Of a stretch of DNA of 64,000 bases, positions 30,020-59,724 are shown piece by piece. A model generated the notes under the pieces. The model had not been told where the DNA came from. It saw only the letters and a list, made by a program, of their open reading frames with translations, and ran no database searches. Position 1 is the stretch's first letter; each line of letters begins with the position of its first letter. Made by a program: the position numbers and the translations under genes. The stretch comes from Shigella phage ESh26: sequence record ON528736. One strand, written 5' to 3'.

Positions 30020-30490
30020 TTAATCATGTTTCCACACCCCATCGGTATTTGACCAAAGTCGCTGATTATCTGATCCTCGCCACAGCTTTTTGGTCGGAAG
30101 ATTTTTCTCATACTTCCCATCAATAATAACATCAACATATTTAAGCATTTCTAGTTGTTTAATATCTTCAAACTTATATCCTGTCCACAACCAAATGCTT
30201 TTATTTGGATAAAGATTTTTTACTGTTTGAACCACAGAGTGAATAACATCTCGGTTATCGGGATAGAGAGGGTCTCCTCCAGTTATAGTTAATCCTTCTA
30301 TATAATCATTATTCAAACATTCAATTAATTGTTCTAGTGTTTCACCAGTGAATGGAACGCCATTTCTAGCGTTCCATGTTGATTTATTATAACACCCTTC
30401 GCATTTATGCAAACAACCTGTAACGAAAAGAACGACCCTGCATCCAGGGCCATTCACAAAATCGCAAGGATAAAATCTATCATAATTCAT
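30020..30490 (-). CDS. nrdG: anaerobic ribonucleotide reductase activase NrdG
   Basis: 156 aa; radical-SAM cluster CDFVNGPGCRVVLFVTGCLHKCEGC. Confidence 0.9.
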   Translation of the reverse strand: MNYDRFYPCDFVNGPGCRVVLFVTGCLHKCEGCYNKSTWNARNGVPFTGETLEQLIECLNNDYIEGLTITGGDPLYPDNRDVIHSVVQTVKNLYPNKSIWLWTGYKFEDIKQLEMLKYVDVIIDGKYEKNLPTKKLWRGSDNQRLWSNTDGVWKHD

Positions 30491-32304
30491 TGGTGTTTAA
30501 CCCTATGCATGATTTCTTTATTTTTGCCGAGATTAAATCCGCGTTCGTTCGGATTTCCCAAATAACCACAAGTTCTTCTTATTGTGTTCATCTTTTTAGG
30601 ATCAGTTTCTCCACAAATAGAACAAACAAATCCGTTTTCAGTAGGAGTCATTTCATGGGTACTTCCACATGTAAAACATTTATCTACTGGCATATTAACG
30701 CCAAAATAATCTAAATGTTGTGCAGCATAATCCCATACAGCCTCAAGACCTTTTAGGTTATTTTTCATATCAGGAAGTTCAACATAAGAAATGTGACCGC
30801 CTGTCGCAATGAAATGATATGGTGCTTCGCGAGAAATCTTTTCAAACGGAGTGATATTTTCTTCTACTGAAACATGGAAACTGTTAGTGTACCATCCTTT
30901 ATCAGTAACGTCTTTTACACTTCCATATTTTTCAGTATCAAGTTTACAGAAGCGATAACAAAGGTTTTCAGCAGGTGTAGAATACAAACTAAAAGCAAAA
31001 CCGGTTCTTTCAGTCCACTGTTTAAGACGAGCATTCATTTTAGTCAAAATTTCCTGTCCAATATCACGACCGACAAGAATATTCAATTCGTGAATACCAA
31101 TGTATCCTAGGGACACTGAACTTCTACCGTTTTTAAATAACTCAATTATGTCGTCATCAGGTTTAAGACGAACCCCGAATGCACCTTCTTGGTAAAGAAT
31201 AGGAGCAACAGTCGCTTTAACTCCTTTTAAGGAACTAATTCTACACATCAAAGCTTCAAAACACAAATCCATTCGTTCATTGAACAATTCGGTAAATTTC
31301 TGTTCATTGAACTGTGTTCCAATATAAGAATCTAATGCGATACGAGGAAGATTCAGTGTTACAACACCGAGATTATTACGTCCATCAAGAATTTCATTAC
31401 CAGTCGAATCTTTCCATACACTCAAGAAACTACGGCAACCCATTGGAGAAACAGGAATAGATGAACCGGTGATAGCTTTATTATTCTTAACTGAAATAAT
31501 ATCAGGATACATTCTTTTGCTTGCACACTCTAGAGCAAGCTGCTTAATATCATAGTTCGGATCGTCTTTATAAAGATTAACGCCTTCTTCAACGAACATA
31601 ACAAGTTTAGGGAAAATAGGAGTTATCCCATCGCGACCAAGGCCTTTAATACGATTTTTCAGAATTGCTTTCTGAATCATTCGTTCAGTCCAGTCAGTTC
31701 CCGTACCAAACGTAATTGTCACAAAAGGCGTTTGCCCATTTGAACTAAAGAGAGTATTTACTTCATATTCATAAGCTTGGAATGCATCGTATACGTCTTT
31801 TTCTGTTTTAGATTGAGCGTAATTCAACGCATCAGCGATTTGCCATTTTTCTGCATCCTCAATATGTTTTGCATAGGTGCGTTTAACATAAGGAGAAAGT
31901 ACTTTATCTACATTAGCAAAAGTCGTTCCGCCATATTGATGAGAAGCAACCTGCGCAGTAATTTGTGCCATAATTGCAGTAGCAACGCCGATTGATTTAG
32001 GAGTTTCAATCTGTGCATTACCGAGCTTAAATCCGTTTTCAAGCATTCCTTTTAAATCTACTAAACAGCAATTAGTAAATGGAAGAGCAGGGGAATAATC
32101 AATATCATGGAAATGGATAATTCCGCTTTCATGTGCTTTCATAATAAAAGACGGGACCATATTTTTGGCAATGTGTTTAGACACAATACCAGCCATAAGG
32201 TCCCGTTGAGTTGGAAAAACACGAGAATCTTTATTAGCATTCTCGTTCAAAAGGTCTTTATTAGTTTTATGAATCAATCCTTCAATTTCTTTTTCAATTG
32301 TCAT
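30487..32304 (-). CDS. nrdD: anaerobic ribonucleoside-triphosphate reductase NrdD
   Basis: Uninterrupted 605-aa ORF; C-terminal zinc ribbon and glycyl radical region. Confidence 0.95.
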   Translation of the reverse strand: MTIEKEIEGLIHKTNKDLLNENANKDSRVFPTQRDLMAGIVSKHIAKNMVPSFIMKAHESGIIHFHDIDYSPALPFTNCCLVDLKGMLENGFKLGNAQIETPKSIGVATAIMAQITAQVASHQYGGTTFANVDKVLSPYVKRTYAKHIEDAEKWQIADALNYAQSKTEKDVYDAFQAYEYEVNTLFSSNGQTPFVTITFGTGTDWTERMIQKAILKNRIKGLGRDGITPIFPKLVMFVEEGVNLYKDDPNYDIKQLALECASKRMYPDIISVKNNKAITGSSIPVSPMGCRSFLSVWKDSTGNEILDGRNNLGVVTLNLPRIALDSYIGTQFNEQKFTELFNERMDLCFEALMCRISSLKGVKATVAPILYQEGAFGVRLKPDDDIIELFKNGRSSVSLGYIGIHELNILVGRDIGQEILTKMNARLKQWTERTGFAFSLYSTPAENLCYRFCKLDTEKYGSVKDVTDKGWYTNSFHVSVEENITPFEKISREAPYHFIATGGHISYVELPDMKNNLKGLEAVWDYAAQHLDYFGVNMPVDKCFTCGSTHEMTPTENGFVCSICGETDPKKMNTIRRTCGYLGNPNERGFNLGKNKEIMHRVKHQ

Positions 32305-34618: not shown

Positions 34619-34987
34619 TTAATCCAAAATATTATTAGGCATTGGTTGAACACTCGCAAGTTCTTTAAAGAACTCAGTAGAGTCAGGTAATTTAACCATT
34701 TCCGGAGCATGCTTGCTAAATTTGTGTTTACAATGACGGCATTTATATTCAAGTTCCGGTTTACGCCAGTTAATCAATTGAACCTGTTCAGTACCGCATT
34801 CAGGACAATTAGGAACGTTTTTAGAAGCCCTTTCGCGACGATCAACCATAGCCATAATAGCATCCCAGGCTGGAGGTTTAAAATCTAAATCGTCAGTAAC
34901 TAACAGTCCTTTATCAAACCCAGCGCATGGAGTCCATTCAGGAAAATCTGAAGCTTCGGCAATATCTTCTAATAGACGCTTTTTCAT
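34619..34987 (-). CDS. zinc-ribbon protein
   Basis: 122 aa; CPECGTEQ...CRHCKHKF. Confidence 0.5.
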
Positions 34988-35913
34988 TTCAATACCTCAA
35001 TAGCATTACGTAAACCATTTGCTTTTGCATTAAGAGCTTTTAACAATTTGGTGTGTTCGGCAATCTGGGCTTCAACTTCAATCAAACGAGCATTGAGATA
35101 TTCACGTTCTTCGCTCAAGTTATCAATCTTTTCTACTTTAGGCTCTTTTACAACTGTCTTATATGTATTAGGGTTCTTCAGTTTAATTAGAATACGTGAA
35201 CTGTATAACATTGAACCATTATCTTCGATTTCGTCATACATTTCTACTACGTCCATGATTTTTAACATCATGCGGAGTTTATAAGACAACGAACGAATAG
35301 TTTTGTTGTGCTTATTAATTTCTTTAGAGTTCATGGTGCCAAGATTACGTGAGTAATAATAAGGAACCTGGATATTAATTAACACTGATGAACCACCTGG
35401 CTTGTGTGTTACTTCATCAGCAATAACCCAATCCTTAACATGAACTGTATTTGTACGGTCATCACCAGCAGTAAATAGTTTGCGAGCATGCTTAAAAAGC
35501 ATATTCACTTGGTCATTGAATTGACAAGCAAATTTATCAGCAAATTTAGTTTCAGGAATGGTAGATAACCAATCAGCCAAGTGGGTCTTTTTAACATCGT
35601 TAACAATAGTAAATTCAACCAAATCGGTTATAGATGTTGCAGATTTAATGAAGCTCGGCTTCATAAAGTTTTTAATGTTATCGCGAGCTACAGTAGAAGA
35701 TAACATACGAGAACGTTTAAACCATTCAAGCAAATTGCCTAACGAATGAGAATAAGCGTTTTGAGTATCTTTACAGATATGATTTTCCTGACCAACATAT
35801 TGAAGGAAATCACGAAGAATATTATTGATTACTGCTCTGTGTCCGATTTGATAATTACGGTGTTTAGTAATAAGACTGTCAAAATAATCAATATAATGTT
35901 TACGAGTTTTCAT
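34984..35913 (-). CDS. coiled-coil paralog 1
   Basis: 309 aa; N-terminus MKTRKHY; C-terminal heptad region [44 protein letters not shown]. Confidence 0.55.
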   Translation of the reverse strand: MKTRKHYIDYFDSLITKHRNYQIGHRAVINNILRDFLQYVGQENHICKDTQNAYSHSLGNLLEWFKRSRMLSSTVARDNIKNFMKPSFIKSATSITDLVEFTIVNDVKKTHLADWLSTIPETKFADKFACQFNDQVNMLFKHARKLFTAGDDRTNTVHVKDWVIADEVTHKPGGSSVLINIQVPYYYSRNLGTMNSKEINKHNKTIRSLSYKLRMMLKIMDVVEMYDEIEDNGSMLYSSRILIKLKNPNTYKTVVKEPKVEKIDNLSEEREYLNARLIEVEAQIAEHTKLLKALNAKANGLRNAIEVLK

Positions 35914-35965
35914 GTTCTTCTCACTTGGTTAATGATTTATACTCCGAGCCATCCTTGGCTTTAAA

Positions 35966-36967
35966 TTACTTAATTAACTGTAAAGCTTGTTCAAGACGAT
36001 CCAGGCGATTAACAGATTCTTCCCAAATCCTTTTAGCCTGCTCATATTCTTTCTGCGCTTTATTAGAAATTTCTAGAGCTTCTTTATAAGCTTTTTCTAG
36101 TGCAATAACTTCTGGACGAATTTCTAGCGGTTCAGGCGAATCGTCAAGATTATCCATTAGTTCCTCAAGGGTAGTTTCTTCTTTAGGAGTATTCACAATT
36201 TCATCACATTTTTGTTGGTAAATTTCTTTATTAGTCGGTGAGTACGCACACTTTACTTCACGGAGACTAACTATAATTTTATATCCTTCCCAACCACACA
36301 TATTTTTGAAAGGATATGTATGAATACTTTTTACAGTTTCCATACAATCCAAAGCCGTTTCTAATTGATGAGTTATAGTGCTAGCAATTGAGAAAAATTT
36401 ATTAATATTCTTTTGGTTAGCTTCTGGTGTAAAAAATTCATAATTCACAAAAATAGCTACTTTATTTTTATCAAGCTCATATTCTTTTACGATAATCATA
36501 TCAGAAGCCAAAGGATGAATTTGACGATAATCACCATAACATAATTTAGAAGCTGATTTTAAAAGTTGCTTCTTGAAAAGTCTGAAATTACTAATCCAAC
36601 GACGAGTAAAAATATTCTTAGGGTCTTCTTTAATATTAAGATGATAAGAATTAACATCACCGAACCAATTGTATCCTATTACACCTTTAGTTCGTTTAAT
36701 TTCTTTCCCAAAATTACCAAGAATATCCCGATTAACCAAATATGAAAGAAGACGAGACCCTTTAAAGGTTATCTTAATATCATCTTTATCTACGCGGCTA
36801 GAAATTTCACGAACTTCATGAATAAATTTACTGGAAGAAACAATACTTGCATCAATACTGCTGAGCCATTGATTGATAATAGAAAGAACAGCATTCTGAC
36901 TAGACATGGGTTTAACTTTATCATCAATAACGCTATTGAATGATTTGATATATTCGTTACGAGTCAT
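35966..36967 (-). CDS. coiled-coil paralog 2
   Basis: Start at MTRNEYIKSF (GAGGAG RBS, promoter 36995-37025); C-terminal coiled coil. Confidence 0.55.
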   Translation of the reverse strand: MTRNEYIKSFNSVIDDKVKPMSSQNAVLSIINQWLSSIDASIVSSSKFIHEVREISSRVDKDDIKITFKGSRLLSYLVNRDILGNFGKEIKRTKGVIGYNWFGDVNSYHLNIKEDPKNIFTRRWISNFRLFKKQLLKSASKLCYGDYRQIHPLASDMIIVKEYELDKNKVAIFVNYEFFTPEANQKNINKFFSIASTITHQLETALDCMETVKSIHTYPFKNMCGWEGYKIIVSLREVKCAYSPTNKEIYQQKCDEIVNTPKEETTLEELMDNLDDSPEPLEIRPEVIALEKAYKEALEISNKAQKEYEQAKRIWEESVNRLDRLEQALQLIK

Positions 36968-36994
36968 AATAATCTCCTCAGTAGAAAGTAAGAA

Positions 36995-37025
36995 CATTAT
37001 ACCACATCCTTGTGGCAAAGTAAAC
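36995..37025 (-). promoter_or_regulatory. early promoter upstream of coiled-coil paralog 2
   Basis: gtaaac 37020-37025, attata 36997-37002. Confidence 0.5.
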
Positions 37026-38050
37026 TAGTTCAGTGCATTTAGTGCATTGTTCAGTTTAGAACGTTGCTTTGTCAGATTTTGAACTCTTGACTGTGCTTGT
37101 TCTAACACCTTTTCAGCTTCTAACATTTCATTAGTTGCTTTAACAAGTTCATCATCTACTGCTTTAAGAGACTTCTCAATCGCATCGGCGTGCCATTTTT
37201 CTACAGGTTTAAAATTTGAATTTTCAGTAGGAAGAAAACTCACTTTATTAAGTTTCCATGCATCTGTACTACTTGAACTGTACATCCAACATTTAGGATC
37301 GTTTGATGAGTAATTGGATAAATTTAAATTTAAGTTATCTTGCACTTCTTGCTTTTTCTCTTGTGTAACTTCGTCCTTTCTCAAAAATTCATATTTAAAT
37401 GAAACGATCATATCAAGTTCATATGTTGTTGTGTCTAATTTAAATCGTTCGAAATGTTGTGAAATCTTAGACTGAACAGCGGCAACAACATCCATATACT
37501 TAAATGCTTCTGTCAACTGCGATTTAAGGCATTCGCAAATTGAAAGAGAATTTTTTGTATTAGGTTTAAAGCTAATTCGTGCAGTTCTGTTATTTTCTTT
37601 TAATGGTCTTACTTCCATCTGAAGAGTATAACCATCAAATTTCAGGTTCTTTAAGTTAATGTCAGAACCTTTTAATCGACTAGCCGTCGACAAAATTTGC
37701 TTTAATTGTTTACGGAATAGAGCAATAAATCTCCATTCAATACGATAATGATTTGGATTGAAAAATCCAGATGATAAATCGACCTTACTCTGACCAACGC
37801 CTTGAACAAATAGAGGATTTTTATAATCAATAGTTTTACAGAAATCAATGAGCTGCTCACGAGCCGTCATTTGTGTAATATACCCCGCTTTACTAAAATG
37901 ACGTAACCATTCACTGCTATTCATATATTTAAAGTGAATATCACGATTAACTTTATCAGGGTCTAAATTATTTTGGCACAAAAATGTCATAACATCACGA
38001 GTATAACTGGCATTACGAACCATATCTTCAATTTGAGAACGAGTTTTCAT
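37025..38050 (-). CDS. coiled-coil paralog 3
   Basis: 341 aa; MKTRSQIEDM...; shared internal FxxFRKQLKxxxSTASRLK segment; C-terminal coiled coil. Confidence 0.55.
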   Translation of the reverse strand: MKTRSQIEDMVRNASYTRDVMTFLCQNNLDPDKVNRDIHFKYMNSSEWLRHFSKAGYITQMTAREQLIDFCKTIDYKNPLFVQGVGQSKVDLSSGFFNPNHYRIEWRFIALFRKQLKQILSTASRLKGSDINLKNLKFDGYTLQMEVRPLKENNRTARISFKPNTKNSLSICECLKSQLTEAFKYMDVVAAVQSKISQHFERFKLDTTTYELDMIVSFKYEFLRKDEVTQEKKQEVQDNLNLNLSNYSSNDPKCWMYSSSSTDAWKLNKVSFLPTENSNFKPVEKWHADAIEKSLKAVDDELVKATNEMLEAEKVLEQAQSRVQNLTKQRSKLNNALNALN

Positions 38051-38058
38051 GGTGTTCC

Positions 38059-38970
38059 TTAAGATTTAAGTAAATCGACAATTTTAATTAACTTTTCACG
38101 CTCAGATTTAGCTTTACTACTCAGTCCAGATAGTCTGAAAATTTCATCATCATATTGTTGAATAGAAATATTCAGCTCTTCAATCTGTTTATTAAAATAA
38201 TCAATTTGTTCAGAATGTTTTTCGTTACTACGAACTGGTACAGGTTTCGTAGGCAATGTAGTTGAACTGGATTCATTCGGGCGATAAATTAAAATACAAC
38301 TTGAACCAATAGGGCATTTTGCACCAGATGAATATTCTAATGTTCCAGCTTCTTTTAAAACTTCAAAAGCTAAACAGAGATGATGCCCCATATTAACATA
38401 ATCTGTAGAGTGAGCTCTGATGTAATAATCATCGCCACGAATACTAAATTTAAAGCATTTAAGGTCTTCTGTATTATTGGTCTTAAAAATCATTTGTTTA
38501 TCTAGACCTTTAGCTAATCGAGCGCCCAATGCTAATAATCGTCGTTGATTTTCCCACAAATCCGCAATCATTTGATCGAATGATAATTTCGGCATTAGTC
38601 GACCGTAAAGGTCATATCCTTTATTATAATTACGAAGGATTTCACTCGCGTTAATACGAGACAACGCTCCAATTTTATTAAGGGCTTTCATAATGCGATT
38701 AGATAAACTCATTCCAGACCCATTTGTTCGCTGCAAATGTTTTTCTAATCCAAATCCAATATCAACTTTAAATTTATCTAAAATTTCGGCATGAACATCT
38801 TTATCAATAACATTCAAATCCAAAGTTGGGTTAAATCTATGAAAAAATTTATCTGGCTCTGCACGGCGAAATACAGTCCATTCATTCATCATTTTTTTAT
38901 TAACTAAAGATTTAATTACTGCATTGACATTATTAATTACTACTGACATATTTTCCTCACTCAATTTCAA
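38059..38970 (-). CDS. coiled-coil paralog 4
   Basis: 303 aa; C-terminal coiled coil; 8 nt from paralog 3. Confidence 0.5.
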   Translation of the reverse strand: MKLSEENMSVVINNVNAVIKSLVNKKMMNEWTVFRRAEPDKFFHRFNPTLDLNVIDKDVHAEILDKFKVDIGFGLEKHLQRTNGSGMSLSNRIMKALNKIGALSRINASEILRNYNKGYDLYGRLMPKLSFDQMIADLWENQRRLLALGARLAKGLDKQMIFKTNNTEDLKCFKFSIRGDDYYIRAHSTDYVNMGHHLCLAFEVLKEAGTLEYSSGAKCPIGSSCILIYRPNESSSTTLPTKPVPVRSNEKHSEQIDYFNKQIEELNISIQQYDDEIFRLSGLSSKAKSEREKLIKIVDLLKS

Positions 38971-39973: not shown

Positions 39974-40007
39974 GTATAGTACCACAGAGGAACAGTCTTG
40001 TAAACCA
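39974..40007 (-). promoter_or_regulatory. early promoter, cassette copy
   Basis: gtaaac 40000-40005, atagta 39976-39981. Confidence 0.55.
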
Positions 40008-41412: not shown

Positions 41413-41446
41413 GTATAGTACCATAAAGCTTTATGCTTGTAAACTG
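41413..41446 (-). promoter_or_regulatory. early promoter, cassette copy upstream of AAA ATPase
   Basis: gtaaac 41439-41444, atagta 41415-41420. Confidence 0.6.
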
Positions 41447-41474
41447 TTCTGTGAAAAAATTTTGAAATAAAAAA

Positions 41475-41493
41475 GGGAGCCCGAAGGCTCCCT
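41475..41493 (-). terminator. intrinsic terminator after nucleotidyltransferase gene
   Basis: gggagcc-cgaa-ggctccc preceded by a-run on plus strand. Confidence 0.65.
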
Positions 41494-58703: not shown

Positions 58704-58779
58704 TGGTCGAGGCAGTAGGGATCGAACCTACGACCTAGGACTTAGAAGGTCCTTGCTCTTCCTTCTGAGCTATGCCCCG
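58704..58779 (-). tRNA. tRNA-Arg (anticodon TCT)
   Basis: Manual cloverleaf: acceptor CGGGGCA/TGCCTCG, loop CTTCTAA, T-loop TTCGATC, encoded CCA. Confidence 0.85.
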
Positions 58780-58783
58780 TAAT

Positions 58784-58859
58784 TGGGGTGACCGATGGGG
58801 GTCGAACCCATGACTACGAGAATCACAATCTCGAGTTCTACCAACTGAACTACGGCCAC
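58784..58859 (-). tRNA. tRNA-His (anticodon GTG)
   Basis: Manual cloverleaf: acceptor GTGGCCG/CGGTCAC, loop TTGTGAT, discriminator C, encoded CCA; no G at -1. Confidence 0.75.
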
Positions 58860-58972
58860 ATTAATACCTACTCCAACAATCAAGATGTCTTCACACGAAA
58901 TTAAGAGAAGAGTGATCAGTTCAACCCTATAATCGCGTCAAGTAGATATTAATGTGACAGTTGTCACAAATT

Positions 58973-59047
58973 TGGCGGACGTGATAGGATTCGAACCTAT
59001 AACCAATCGCTTAACAGGCGATCGCTCTGCCATTGAGCTACACATCC
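58973..59047 (-). tRNA. tRNA-Asn (anticodon GTT)
   Basis: Manual cloverleaf: acceptor GGATGTG/CACGTCC, loop CTGTTAA, T-loop TTCGAAT, encoded CCA. Confidence 0.8.
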
Positions 59048-59051
59048 AAAT

Positions 59052-59138
59052 TGGTGGGGAGTGATGGAGTCGAACCACCCGAGTCGCAATGACAATGGAT
59101 TTACAGTCCACACCGCTACCTCTACGGGATAACTCCCC
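59052..59138 (-). tRNA. tRNA-Tyr (anticodon GTA), long variable arm
   Basis: 87 nt; acceptor GGGGAGT/ACTCCCC, loop CTGTAAA, T-loop TTCGACT, encoded CCA. Confidence 0.75.
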
Positions 59139-59151
59139 TTAATTCTTAATT

Positions 59152-59226
59152 TGGTGGCCCTGGGTGGAATTGAACCACCATCTGGCGATTATGAGTCGCT
59201 TGCTTGAACCTTCCAGCTACAGGGCC
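59152..59226 (-). tRNA. tRNA with anticodon CAT (Ile-lysidine type as in T4, or Met)
   Basis: Acceptor GGCCCTG/CAGGGCC, loop CTCATAA, T-loop TTCAATT, encoded CCA; position after tRNA-Thr. Confidence 0.75.
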
Positions 59227-59227
59227 T

Positions 59228-59303
59228 TGGTGCTGATTGACGGAATCGAACCGCCGACCTTCTCATTACAAGTGAGTTGCTCTACCTACTGAGCTAAATC
59301 AGC
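59228..59303 (-). tRNA. tRNA-Thr (anticodon TGT)
   Basis: GCTGATTTAGCTCAGTAGGTAGAGC...CTTGTAA...GGTTCGATTCC...CAATCAGCACCA. Confidence 0.9.
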
Positions 59304-59308
59304 AAAAC

Positions 59309-59398
59309 TGGCGGAGGCGATAGGATTTGAACCTATGAGTCGCCGGAGCGACTGCCGGTTTTCAAGACCGGTGCATTAAACCACTCTGCCACGCCTCC
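59309..59398 (-). tRNA. tRNA-Ser (anticodon TGA), long variable arm
   Basis: 90 nt; GGAGGCGTGGCAGAGTGG...CTTGAAA...GGTTCAAATCC...CGCCTCCGCCA. Confidence 0.9.
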
Positions 59399-59400
59399 AG

Positions 59401-59474
59401 TCTCCATACAAGGATTTGAACCTTGGACCTCCTGATCCCAAATCAGGCGCTCTACCAAACTGAGCTACACGGAG
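59401..59474 (-). tRNA. tRNA-Pro (anticodon TGG), CCA not encoded
   Basis: CTCCGTGTAGCTCAGTTTGGTAGAGC...TTTGGGA...GGTTCAAATCC; 2 nt from tRNA-Ser (dimeric precursor as in T4). Confidence 0.88.
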
Positions 59475-59484
59475 TAAATTAAAT

Positions 59485-59558
<74 letters not shown>

Positions 59559-59563
59559 AAATT

Positions 59564-59650
59564 TGGTGCGAGAAGTGGGACTCGAACCCACAAGGAAATC
59601 ATTCCGCAGCATTTTAAGTGCTGTGCCTTTACCAATTTGGCCATTCTCGC
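59564..59650 (-). tRNA. tRNA-Leu (anticodon TAA), long variable arm
   Basis: 87 nt; GCGAGAATGGCCAAATTGGTAAAGGC...CTTAAAA...GGGTTCGAGTCCC...CGCACCA. Confidence 0.9.
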
Positions 59651-59651
59651 G

Positions 59652-59724
59652 CTGGGAATAAAGGACTCGAACCTTTGCATCCTGGAATCAAAATCCAGTG
59701 CCTTACCAACTTGGCTAATTCCCA
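59652..59724 (-). tRNA. tRNA-Gln (anticodon TTG), CCA not fully encoded
   Basis: TGGGAATTAGCCAAGTTGG...TTTTGAT...GGTTCGAGTCC...ATTCCCAG; abuts tRNA-Leu. Confidence 0.88.

Follow-up and report, generated by a model that had tools for sequence, protein, structure and literature searches.

The nrdC.3 to nrdC.6 genes of Shigella phage ESh26: diverged paralogs of T4-like phages and candidate inhibitors of bacterial immunity

Introduction

T4 is the best-studied phage, and most of its roughly 100 accessory genes are without a function. In this article, I will discuss four of them, nrdC.3, nrdC.4, nrdC.5 and nrdC.6, as found in Shigella phage ESh26 (sequence record ON528736), where their homologues lie one after the other at positions 34984-38970 of the window, by which I mean the whole 64,000-nucleotide (nt) stretch of DNA that was analysed. 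The locus is known, since all four are named T4 open reading frames (ORFs) and one has been characterised functionally. An evolved T4 clone lacking a genome segment did not grow on ECOR17 or on MG1655 carrying ECOR17 dsr1 (PMC9391042), and plasmid-expressed T4 nrdC.5 restored the growth of that clone on Dsr1+ cells (PMC9391042; Srikant, Guegler and Laub, eLife 2022). Dsr1 is a SIR2-domain (sirtuin) protein thought to deplete NAD+, and its TPR sensor, common to Avs7, is triggered by the phage major capsid protein (2026 preprint, PMC12803255). Similarly, DSAD1 of SPbeta-like phages, which is described as having no enzymatic domain, disables the SIR2-domain NADase DSR2 (PMC11087589, PMC10973363). 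Also, nearby in T4, gp49.2 inhibits OLD (PMC13096335) and NrdC.1 inhibits Septu (bioRxiv 2025.11.20.689424). The four T4 genes are non-essential according to the entries of the HIDEN-SEQ supplement, where insertions are tolerated at 91 of 94 sites in nrdC.3, 97 of 101 in nrdC.4, 82 of 82 in nrdC.5 and 79 of 82 in nrdC.6.

The third gene of the array is like T4 nrdC.5 in length and neighbours and encodes a protein 92% identical to it; the activity, however, was seen for the T4 allele against ECOR17 Dsr1, and the window allele differs at about 8% of its residues, mostly in the linker. Genes 1, 2 and 4 are orthologues of those for T4 NrdC.3 and NrdC.4 (PF26897) and NrdC.6 (PF26899), with the window allele of NrdC.3 being just 60% identical. 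DSAD1 serves here as the working model for NrdC.5, because both are phage proteins without an enzymatic domain that counter a SIR2 NADase defence, a likeness drawn from their descriptions; yet DSR2 senses the tail tube whereas Dsr1 senses the capsid protein, the phage group and the host differ, and direct binding has been demonstrated for DSAD1 whereas for NrdC.5 it is a proposal. gp49.2 and NrdC.1 come from the same early non-essential block, gene 49 to nrdC.11, and are small or medium-sized, host-specific and free of known domains, but they are unrelated to NrdC.3-6 in sequence, much smaller and outside the paralog array. The databases separate PF26897 and PF26899 from DUF7235, whereas the present analysis unites them: what it adds is that DUF7235, PF26897 and PF26899 are one superfamily confined to T4-like phages, a modest advance on a locus that was itself known. 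As argued below from sequence comparison, the four genes appear to belong to one gene family, found in T4-like phages only, as old paralogs that have since diverged strongly, and the explanation that I favour, with a probability of roughly 0.62, is that they encode coiled-coil accessory proteins that are most likely stoichiometric inhibitors of bacterial immune proteins.

Four genes of one family

The 3,987-nt stretch that holds the array matches 656 phage records, the top one at 97.5% identity, and these are nearly all Tequatrovirus phages (Escherichia, Shigella, Yersinia); the array is the nrdC.3 to nrdC.6 block as known from T4-like phages of the genus Tequatrovirus. All four genes are on the minus strand: the homologues of nrdC.3 (34984-35913, 309 amino acids (aa), 60% identity to T4 nrdC.3), nrdC.4 (35966-36967, 333 aa from its ATG, 89%), nrdC.5 (37025-38050, 341 aa, 92%) and nrdC.6 (38059-38949, 296 aa from the ATG at 38949, 98%). 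The first two belong to PF26897 (Phage_T4_Y04OP) and phrog_1435 (E = 6.9e-117 for nrdC.3 and 8.3e-166 for nrdC.4), nrdC.5 belongs to DUF7235 (PF23882; 381.6 bits against a cut-off of 30, residues 1-341 covering 1-307 of the 307 model positions) and phrog_2351, and nrdC.6 belongs to PF26899 (Phage_T4_Y05B) and phrog_2257 (E = 1.1e-151). PF26897 is carried by all 64 of the 64 nrdC.4 homologues and PF26899 by 105 of 105 nrdC.6 homologues, and the orthology of nrdC.5 to its T4 namesake rests on full-length identity and on its being flanked by nrdC.6 and nrdC.4 as in T4. Pfam already holds nrdC.3 and nrdC.4 as one family, and the three families DUF7235, PF26897 and PF26899 are kept apart in both Pfam and PHROGs.

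An initial annotation of the window had taken the four genes for divergent tandem paralogs and had asked for pairwise and profile comparison. The pairwise part of that comparison is significant for a single pair, as BLASTP joins nrdC.3 and nrdC.4 (27% identity over 159 aa, E = 3e-7) and leaves every other pair among the four proteins at noise level, so that a pairwise search alone would wrongly refute paralogy. Profiles, on the other hand, link all four. With family alignments assembled from protein searches and related loci, hhalign gave probabilities of 98.2% for nrdC.3 versus nrdC.4, 71% for nrdC.4 versus nrdC.5, 33% for nrdC.3 versus nrdC.5 and at most 21% for nrdC.6 versus the other three. 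When the nrdC.6 profile was searched exhaustively, as a hidden Markov model (HMM), against 1.84 billion representative proteins, only 14 matches came back, which marks the family as narrow, and three of these (P0234, P0236 and P0237, hereafter the intermediates) are distant full-length relatives with a motif, RxFLAxGARLCxGxxRxM, that is similar to the basic segment found in each of the four window proteins. The profile of the intermediates, coils included, matched nrdC.6 at 99.0% (E = 7e-18), nrdC.5 at 97.6% (E = 3e-12) and nrdC.4 at 92.9% (E = 4e-7).

Since coiled coils can inflate such scores, every alignment was cut ahead of the linker and hhalign was repeated. The coil-less profiles still joined nrdC.3 to nrdC.4 (98.3%, E = 2e-14), nrdC.4 to nrdC.5 (84%, E = 7.5e-6), and the intermediates to nrdC.4 (94.3%), nrdC.5 (79-89%) and nrdC.6 (96.6%), giving a superfamily chain nrdC.3 - nrdC.4 - (nrdC.5, intermediates) - nrdC.6 with 79-98% per step. 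When coil-less profiles were merged, nrdC.3 and nrdC.4 together matched nrdC.5, nrdC.6, the intermediates and the single-copy genes of other genera (introduced below) at 97.1% (E = 6.8e-11, 137 columns), and nrdC.6 matched nrdC.5 plus the intermediates at 96.1%. The coil-less alignments are collinear over 115-137 columns, reversed and column-shuffled controls reached at most 0.3% probability (E of at least 0.19), and five HMMs run against 129 ORFs of at least 150 aa from the fetched loci matched only family members. The proposal of divergent tandem paralogs thereby finds its support.

Architecture and structure models

The proteins, with masses of 34-40 kDa, would be built alike, with an N-terminal helical domain followed by a conserved core, in which two helices with a basic A-[SA]-[RK]-L...G motif come before a beta-hairpin, a further helix and another beta-hairpin, and with a low-complexity linker and a coiled coil at the C-terminal end. 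Three sequence features that the initial annotation had pointed out are present. The MKTR/MTR start that it gave for three copies is that of nrdC.3, nrdC.4 and nrdC.5, and divergent orthologues retain 'TR..(Y/F/L)I'. The internal basic segment is real: the quoted stretches correspond to nrdC.4 aa 128-149 (36521-36586), nrdC.5 aa 108-130 (FIALFRKQLKQILSTASRLKGSD; 37661-37729), which is the basic helix motif of the core domain, and nrdC.6 aa 131-153 (38491-38559), all on the minus strand and mutually aligned by hhalign, and nrdC.3 aa 137-154 (NMLFKHARKLFTAGDDRT; 35452-35505, minus strand), likewise aligned by hhalign, has the same A-[SR]-[RK]-L...G-D motif. The heptad-repeat C-terminus also holds, in that the heptad periodicity of the C-terminal 56 residues is above that of shuffled sequences in all four (p = 0.016 for nrdC.3, 0.013 for nrdC.4, <0.0005 for nrdC.5 and 0.003 for nrdC.6). 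The coiled-coil segment of nrdC.5, located by the heptad test and the modelled helices, is aa 285-341 (37028-37198), and its equivalents are at 34987-35112 (nrdC.3), 35969-36115 (nrdC.4) and 38062-38220 (nrdC.6), again on the minus strand.

AlphaFold2 modelled nrdC.6 with a predicted local distance difference test score (pLDDT) of 76.6 and a predicted template modelling score of 0.65, and nrdC.5 with a pLDDT of 61.5 (70-89 in the core). Long C-terminal helices were modelled at residues 282-340 of nrdC.5 and at 243-272 and 278-295 of nrdC.6, and the order of elements is common to both models: N-terminal helices, two helices with the basic motif, a beta-hairpin, a helix with an 'A(L/F)..M..V'-type motif, a second beta-hairpin, a disordered linker and the long C-terminal helices. 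Foldseek searches of BFVD with the two models found the same proteins, A0A7G3KGN9 of Enterobacter phage IME523 (E = 2e-6 with nrdC.5, 5.5e-7 with nrdC.6) and A0A0A0PZG4 of Pectobacterium phage PM2 (E = 6e-5 and 1.1e-6), and the matches common to both are uncharacterised proteins of T4-like phages; the nrdC.6 model also matches similar proteins of Acinetobacter, Citrobacter, Klebsiella, Yersinia and Serratia phages. Conservation per domain within the families showed no clear pattern besides the conserved coil.

Searches of PDB, the Pfam enzyme families, NCBIfam and PADLOC, together with member-by-member Pfam scans, gave no match above cut-off and no known fold, and the earlier statement that no enzymatic motif could be recognised is upheld by the Pfam, NCBIfam, PADLOC and structure searches. 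A weak likeness of nrdC.3 aa 30-86 to the core-binding (SAM-like) domain of tyrosine recombinases (E = 0.057 in Pfam, 0.0017 in NCBIfam) was considered as a hint of a recombinase N-domain and dropped, as its scores are well short of the curated cut-offs and the nrdC.4 family does not show it. Many GenBank records label homologues of nrdC.3-6 'thioredoxin'. This label was apparently inherited from the name of the locus, nrdC.x, and should go, because neither Pfam nor NCBIfam matches a thioredoxin or glutaredoxin domain in the four proteins and the CxxC motif is found in none of the four sequences.

Copy number, alleles and selection

Homologues are confined to T4-like phages, with nrdC.3 found in 653, nrdC.4 in 553, nrdC.5 in 539 and nrdC.6 in 741 of 50,697 phage records. 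The comparison of copy number across related phages, which had been suggested as a check, gives 1, 3 or 4 family members, as expected of accessory host-interaction genes. Kanagawavirus (IME523) and Mosugukvirus (PM2) have one single-copy gene between nrdC.9/nrdC.10 and nrdC.2, and it is these genes that encode A0A7G3KGN9 and A0A0A0PZG4; Gaprivervirus VR26 and Dhakavirus QL01 have nrdC.6, an nrdC.5-like gene and nrdC.4 and are without nrdC.3; T4 and the ESh26 window have all four; and a Tequatrovirus subclade (loci L004 and L005) has a divergent nrdC.6-like gene, a divergent nrdC.5-like gene and nrdC.3 and is without nrdC.4. The nrdC.5-like and nrdC.6-like genes of that subclade share just 32% and 39% identity with their window counterparts, and both loci carry a membrane protein gene (L004 9253-9666), 44% identical to nrdC.7, between nrdC.2 and nrdC and not beside nrdC.6. 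In an IMG/VR phage (L002, 6916-7948), nrdC.4 is split into two overlapping ORFs of 193 and 158 aa and is probably a frameshifted copy, and the protein cluster P0056 is an in-frame fusion of the C-terminal two-thirds of nrdC.5 with the C-terminal half of nrdC.3, joined near 'NKV|NMLF' with nrdC.4 deleted, which suggests recombination between paralogs. The insertions tolerated by the T4 orthologues, the variable copy number and the pseudogene and fusion variants all mark the genes as accessory. One further locus, L013, lies in a contig labelled E. coli (GCA_025336695.1, JAODFN010000001.1) whose genes follow a T4-like order over all of the 21 kb that was read, and its nrdC.3 and nrdC.4 homologues both carry PF26897. 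The contig, at 489,447 nt, has the length of about three phage genomes, and for this reason it is probably not an integrated element but a concatemer or mis-binned phage DNA.

Diversifying selection, with which the initial annotation had linked such duplicated and divergent genes, is not shown by the rates. Pairwise, gene-wide Nei-Gojobori ratios of nonsynonymous to synonymous substitution (dN/dS) are 0.07-0.28 for nrdC.3, 0.24-0.31 for nrdC.4, 0.15-0.34 for nrdC.5 and 0.05-0.35 for nrdC.6, compared with 0-0.09 for the neighbours nrdC, gene 49, nrdC.8, nrdC.10 and nrdC.11. The four genes thus stand 3-10 times above their neighbours, and their values of 0.05-0.35, well below 1, mean purifying selection at a raised rate and do not demonstrate positive selection at this resolution. 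The most allele-variable member is nrdC.3, with three allele classes among its 653 records (about 95-100%, 75% and 61% identity), the first 75 and last 40 residues being 83-93% identical to those of T4 and the centre (aa 76-270) 33-60%; even in this variable centre dN/dS is 0.32, with a synonymous rate (dS) of 1.4. Large allele differences accompanied by high dS (0.66-1.4) speak for replacement by old, diverged alleles rather than for fast change in place, and the duplications themselves are ancient and not recent, nrdC.4-, nrdC.5- and nrdC.6-type genes being already present in other genera. The pattern seen is one of gain, loss and allele replacement, with alleles exchanged between lineages. 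Much variation is found in the adjacent nrdC.2 (34619-34987) as well, with 66% identity to T4, 48% identity to L004 and dS of 0.84-1.9, and for this reason the allele-replacement tract seems to span nrdC.2 and nrdC.3 together.

What the proteins may do

I propose that the products of nrdC.3-6 would be non-enzymatic, non-essential accessory factors made inside the infected cell, where all four most likely inhibit immune proteins of the bacterium in a stoichiometric manner. The NrdC.5 of the window, given its identity to that of T4, would also overcome Dsr1, and it may do so by binding Dsr1 directly, in the way that DSAD1 binds DSR2. The contact would be made with either the capsid-recognising TPR sensor or the SIR2 effector, and by blocking capsid sensing or the activation of the NADase it would keep NAD+ from depletion. 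The C-terminal coiled coil probably oligomerises the protein, and specificity might reside in the variable N-terminal and core parts while oligomerisation is left to the conserved coil. NrdC.3, NrdC.4 and NrdC.6 could then neutralise other immune sensors or variants, and the array would expand, contract and swap alleles according to the hosts met. The suggestion that these are counter-defence genes is borne out for nrdC.5 of T4 by the growth that the T4 gene restores on Dsr1 cells (PMC9391042), and nothing comparable was found for nrdC.3, nrdC.4 and nrdC.6, for which the literature search returned no other names or functions beyond their dispensability in T4. A bolder version of the idea, which I regard as rather unlikely, is that the family offers a modular scaffold, oligomeric in form, with which immune sensors are plugged. 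The conserved coil would multimerise the protein, and in each paralog the variable core and N-terminus would serve as decoy or clamp against another bacterial pattern-recognition sensor, the capsid-recognising TPR sensors of Dsr1 and Avs7 being one example; the array would then be a repertoire of sensor blockers that duplication, loss and the exchange of alleles have diversified, the anti-immune counterpart of a host receptor gene family.

Several points weigh against the inhibitor reading. nrdC.5 alone has a phenotype, in T4 only and from one complementation experiment, and the literature search found no binding, biochemistry or mechanism for NrdC.5. The arms-race signature of positive selection is missing from the pairwise dN/dS, no value in the four genes coming near 1, and early expression in ESh26 would follow from T4 and from pattern-level promoter matches alone. 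The basic isoelectric points of nrdC.3, nrdC.5 and nrdC.6 (9.1-9.4) would fit nucleic-acid binding too. On the side of paralogy, the structure models cover nrdC.5 and nrdC.6 only and were compared by element order and common structural neighbours, the direct nrdC.6 profile is not significant against nrdC.3, nrdC.4 or nrdC.5 (0.3-9%), and the nrdC.6 link would hang on three intermediate sequences and models of moderate confidence, that of nrdC.5 in particular.

There are three alternatives. The most serious of them, doubtful as I find it, accepts the paralogous family and makes nrdC.5 its only immune inhibitor, with nrdC.3, nrdC.4 and nrdC.6 having other accessory roles such as nucleic-acid binding or an effect on host transcription, translation or metabolism early in infection. 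It can draw on those isoelectric points and on the fact that the most conserved motif is a basic helix, on the recombinase-like stretch of nrdC.3, and on one comparison listed in the HIDEN-SEQ supplement in which nrdC.3-6 were without significant fitness change; however, the recombinase-like matches are far under the curated cut-offs and absent from the nrdC.4 family scans, presence/absence variation, allele turnover and proven anti-defence neighbours fit host-specific functions better than a general host take-over, and inhibitor paralogs usually retain their mode of action. It is improbable, in my view, that the four are not homologous as a set, with nrdC.3 and nrdC.4 being paralogs and the likeness of nrdC.5 and nrdC.6 being a convergence in size, basic helix and score-inflating coil. 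For this one could cite the BLASTP result, the three separate families in Pfam and PHROGs, direct hhalign probabilities of 0.5-9% for nrdC.5 versus nrdC.6 and at most 2% for nrdC.3 or nrdC.4 versus nrdC.6, and the low TM-scores (0.26-0.48) of the structural matches common to nrdC.5 and nrdC.6, although the latter are expected of multi-domain proteins with flexible linkers. Convergence would nonetheless have to explain why the profile signal outlasts removal of the coil and disappears in the reversed and shuffled controls, why the alignments run collinearly over 115-137 columns, why the two models agree in the order of helices and hairpins, and why, in other genera, one and the same single-copy gene, located where the array is in T4, is matched by both models and by both HMMs. 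Finally, it is very improbable that these are structural or assembly proteins, for example kin to tail completion or tail terminator proteins: the nrdC.5 model weakly matches tail completion, tail terminator and neck proteins (Foldseek, E = 5e-3 to 3e-2), but these matches were not seen with the nrdC.6 model, and the tail-terminator-like reading was set aside. The virion-protein matches of nrdC.5 could be noise, or they could mean that its core imitates a virion protein.

Gene layout and neighbouring features

The window keeps the T4 synteny from nrdC.2 to nrdC.11, and the neighbours of the array, nrdG, nrdD, gene 49 (endonuclease VII), nrdC, nrdC.1, nrdC.2 and nrdC.7 to nrdC.11, are in T4 order. 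The four consecutive genes, which are on the minus strand, were described correctly in the initial annotation, as were the lengths of 309, 333 and 341 aa, and the fourth length of 303 aa is corrected here to 296 aa. The 303-aa version would begin at a TTG (38970) within the last codons of the upstream nrdC.7, whereas the ATG at 38949 has a GAGG Shine-Dalgarno sequence ahead of it and gives the 296 aa of the T4 annotation, and for these reasons it is most likely the start; the phrog_2257 match begins at residue 8 of the longer version. For nrdC.4, a GAGGAG lying 6 nt upstream of the ATG at 36967 backs the 333-aa start, although in the program-made ORF list the frame runs on to a TTG at 37018. 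The intergenic gaps, from nrdC.6 through nrdC.3, are 8, 57 and 52 nt. At the other end of the array, nrdC.2 starts in overlap with the stop of nrdC.3.

In the nrdC.5-nrdC.4 spacer, just upstream of nrdC.4, there is a promoter-like site of the Sigma-70/T4-early type (36996-37024, minus strand; GTTTACT, 17 nt, TATAAT with TG), recognised by pattern match, and since promoter-like matches across the region number 39 against 36.6 expected from shuffled sequence, with no excess in the promoter and terminator scan, this site is merely suggestive. Further minus-strand sites of the T4-early type (TTTAC-17-TA..AT with TG) lie at 39976-40004, upstream of nrdC.8, and at 41415-41443, upstream of nrdC.10, and a strong hairpin with a T-run is found 3' of nrdC.11 (41474-41493), all as pattern matches. 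Rfam and tRNA scans found nothing within 34984-38970. Elsewhere in the window, a cluster of 11 tRNAs is on the minus strand at 58704-59724 (Arg, His, Asn, Tyr, Met, Thr, Ser, Pro, Gly, Leu and Gln), and nrdD is a single intact ORF of 605 aa (30487-32304, minus strand), whereas the copy in the T4 record is split by an insertion bearing a homing endonuclease.

Significance

If nrdC.5, the anti-Dsr1 gene, belongs to a four-gene family, then nrdC.3, nrdC.4 and nrdC.6 gain a testable hypothesis, namely that each blocks an immune system, and as paralogs of a gene that counters Dsr1 they are good candidates against immune systems other than Dsr1. DUF7235, PF26897 and PF26899 could be merged into one clan. 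Furthermore, such a family would explain the differences in copy number and alleles among otherwise near-identical therapeutic T4-like phages, and it bears on their host range.

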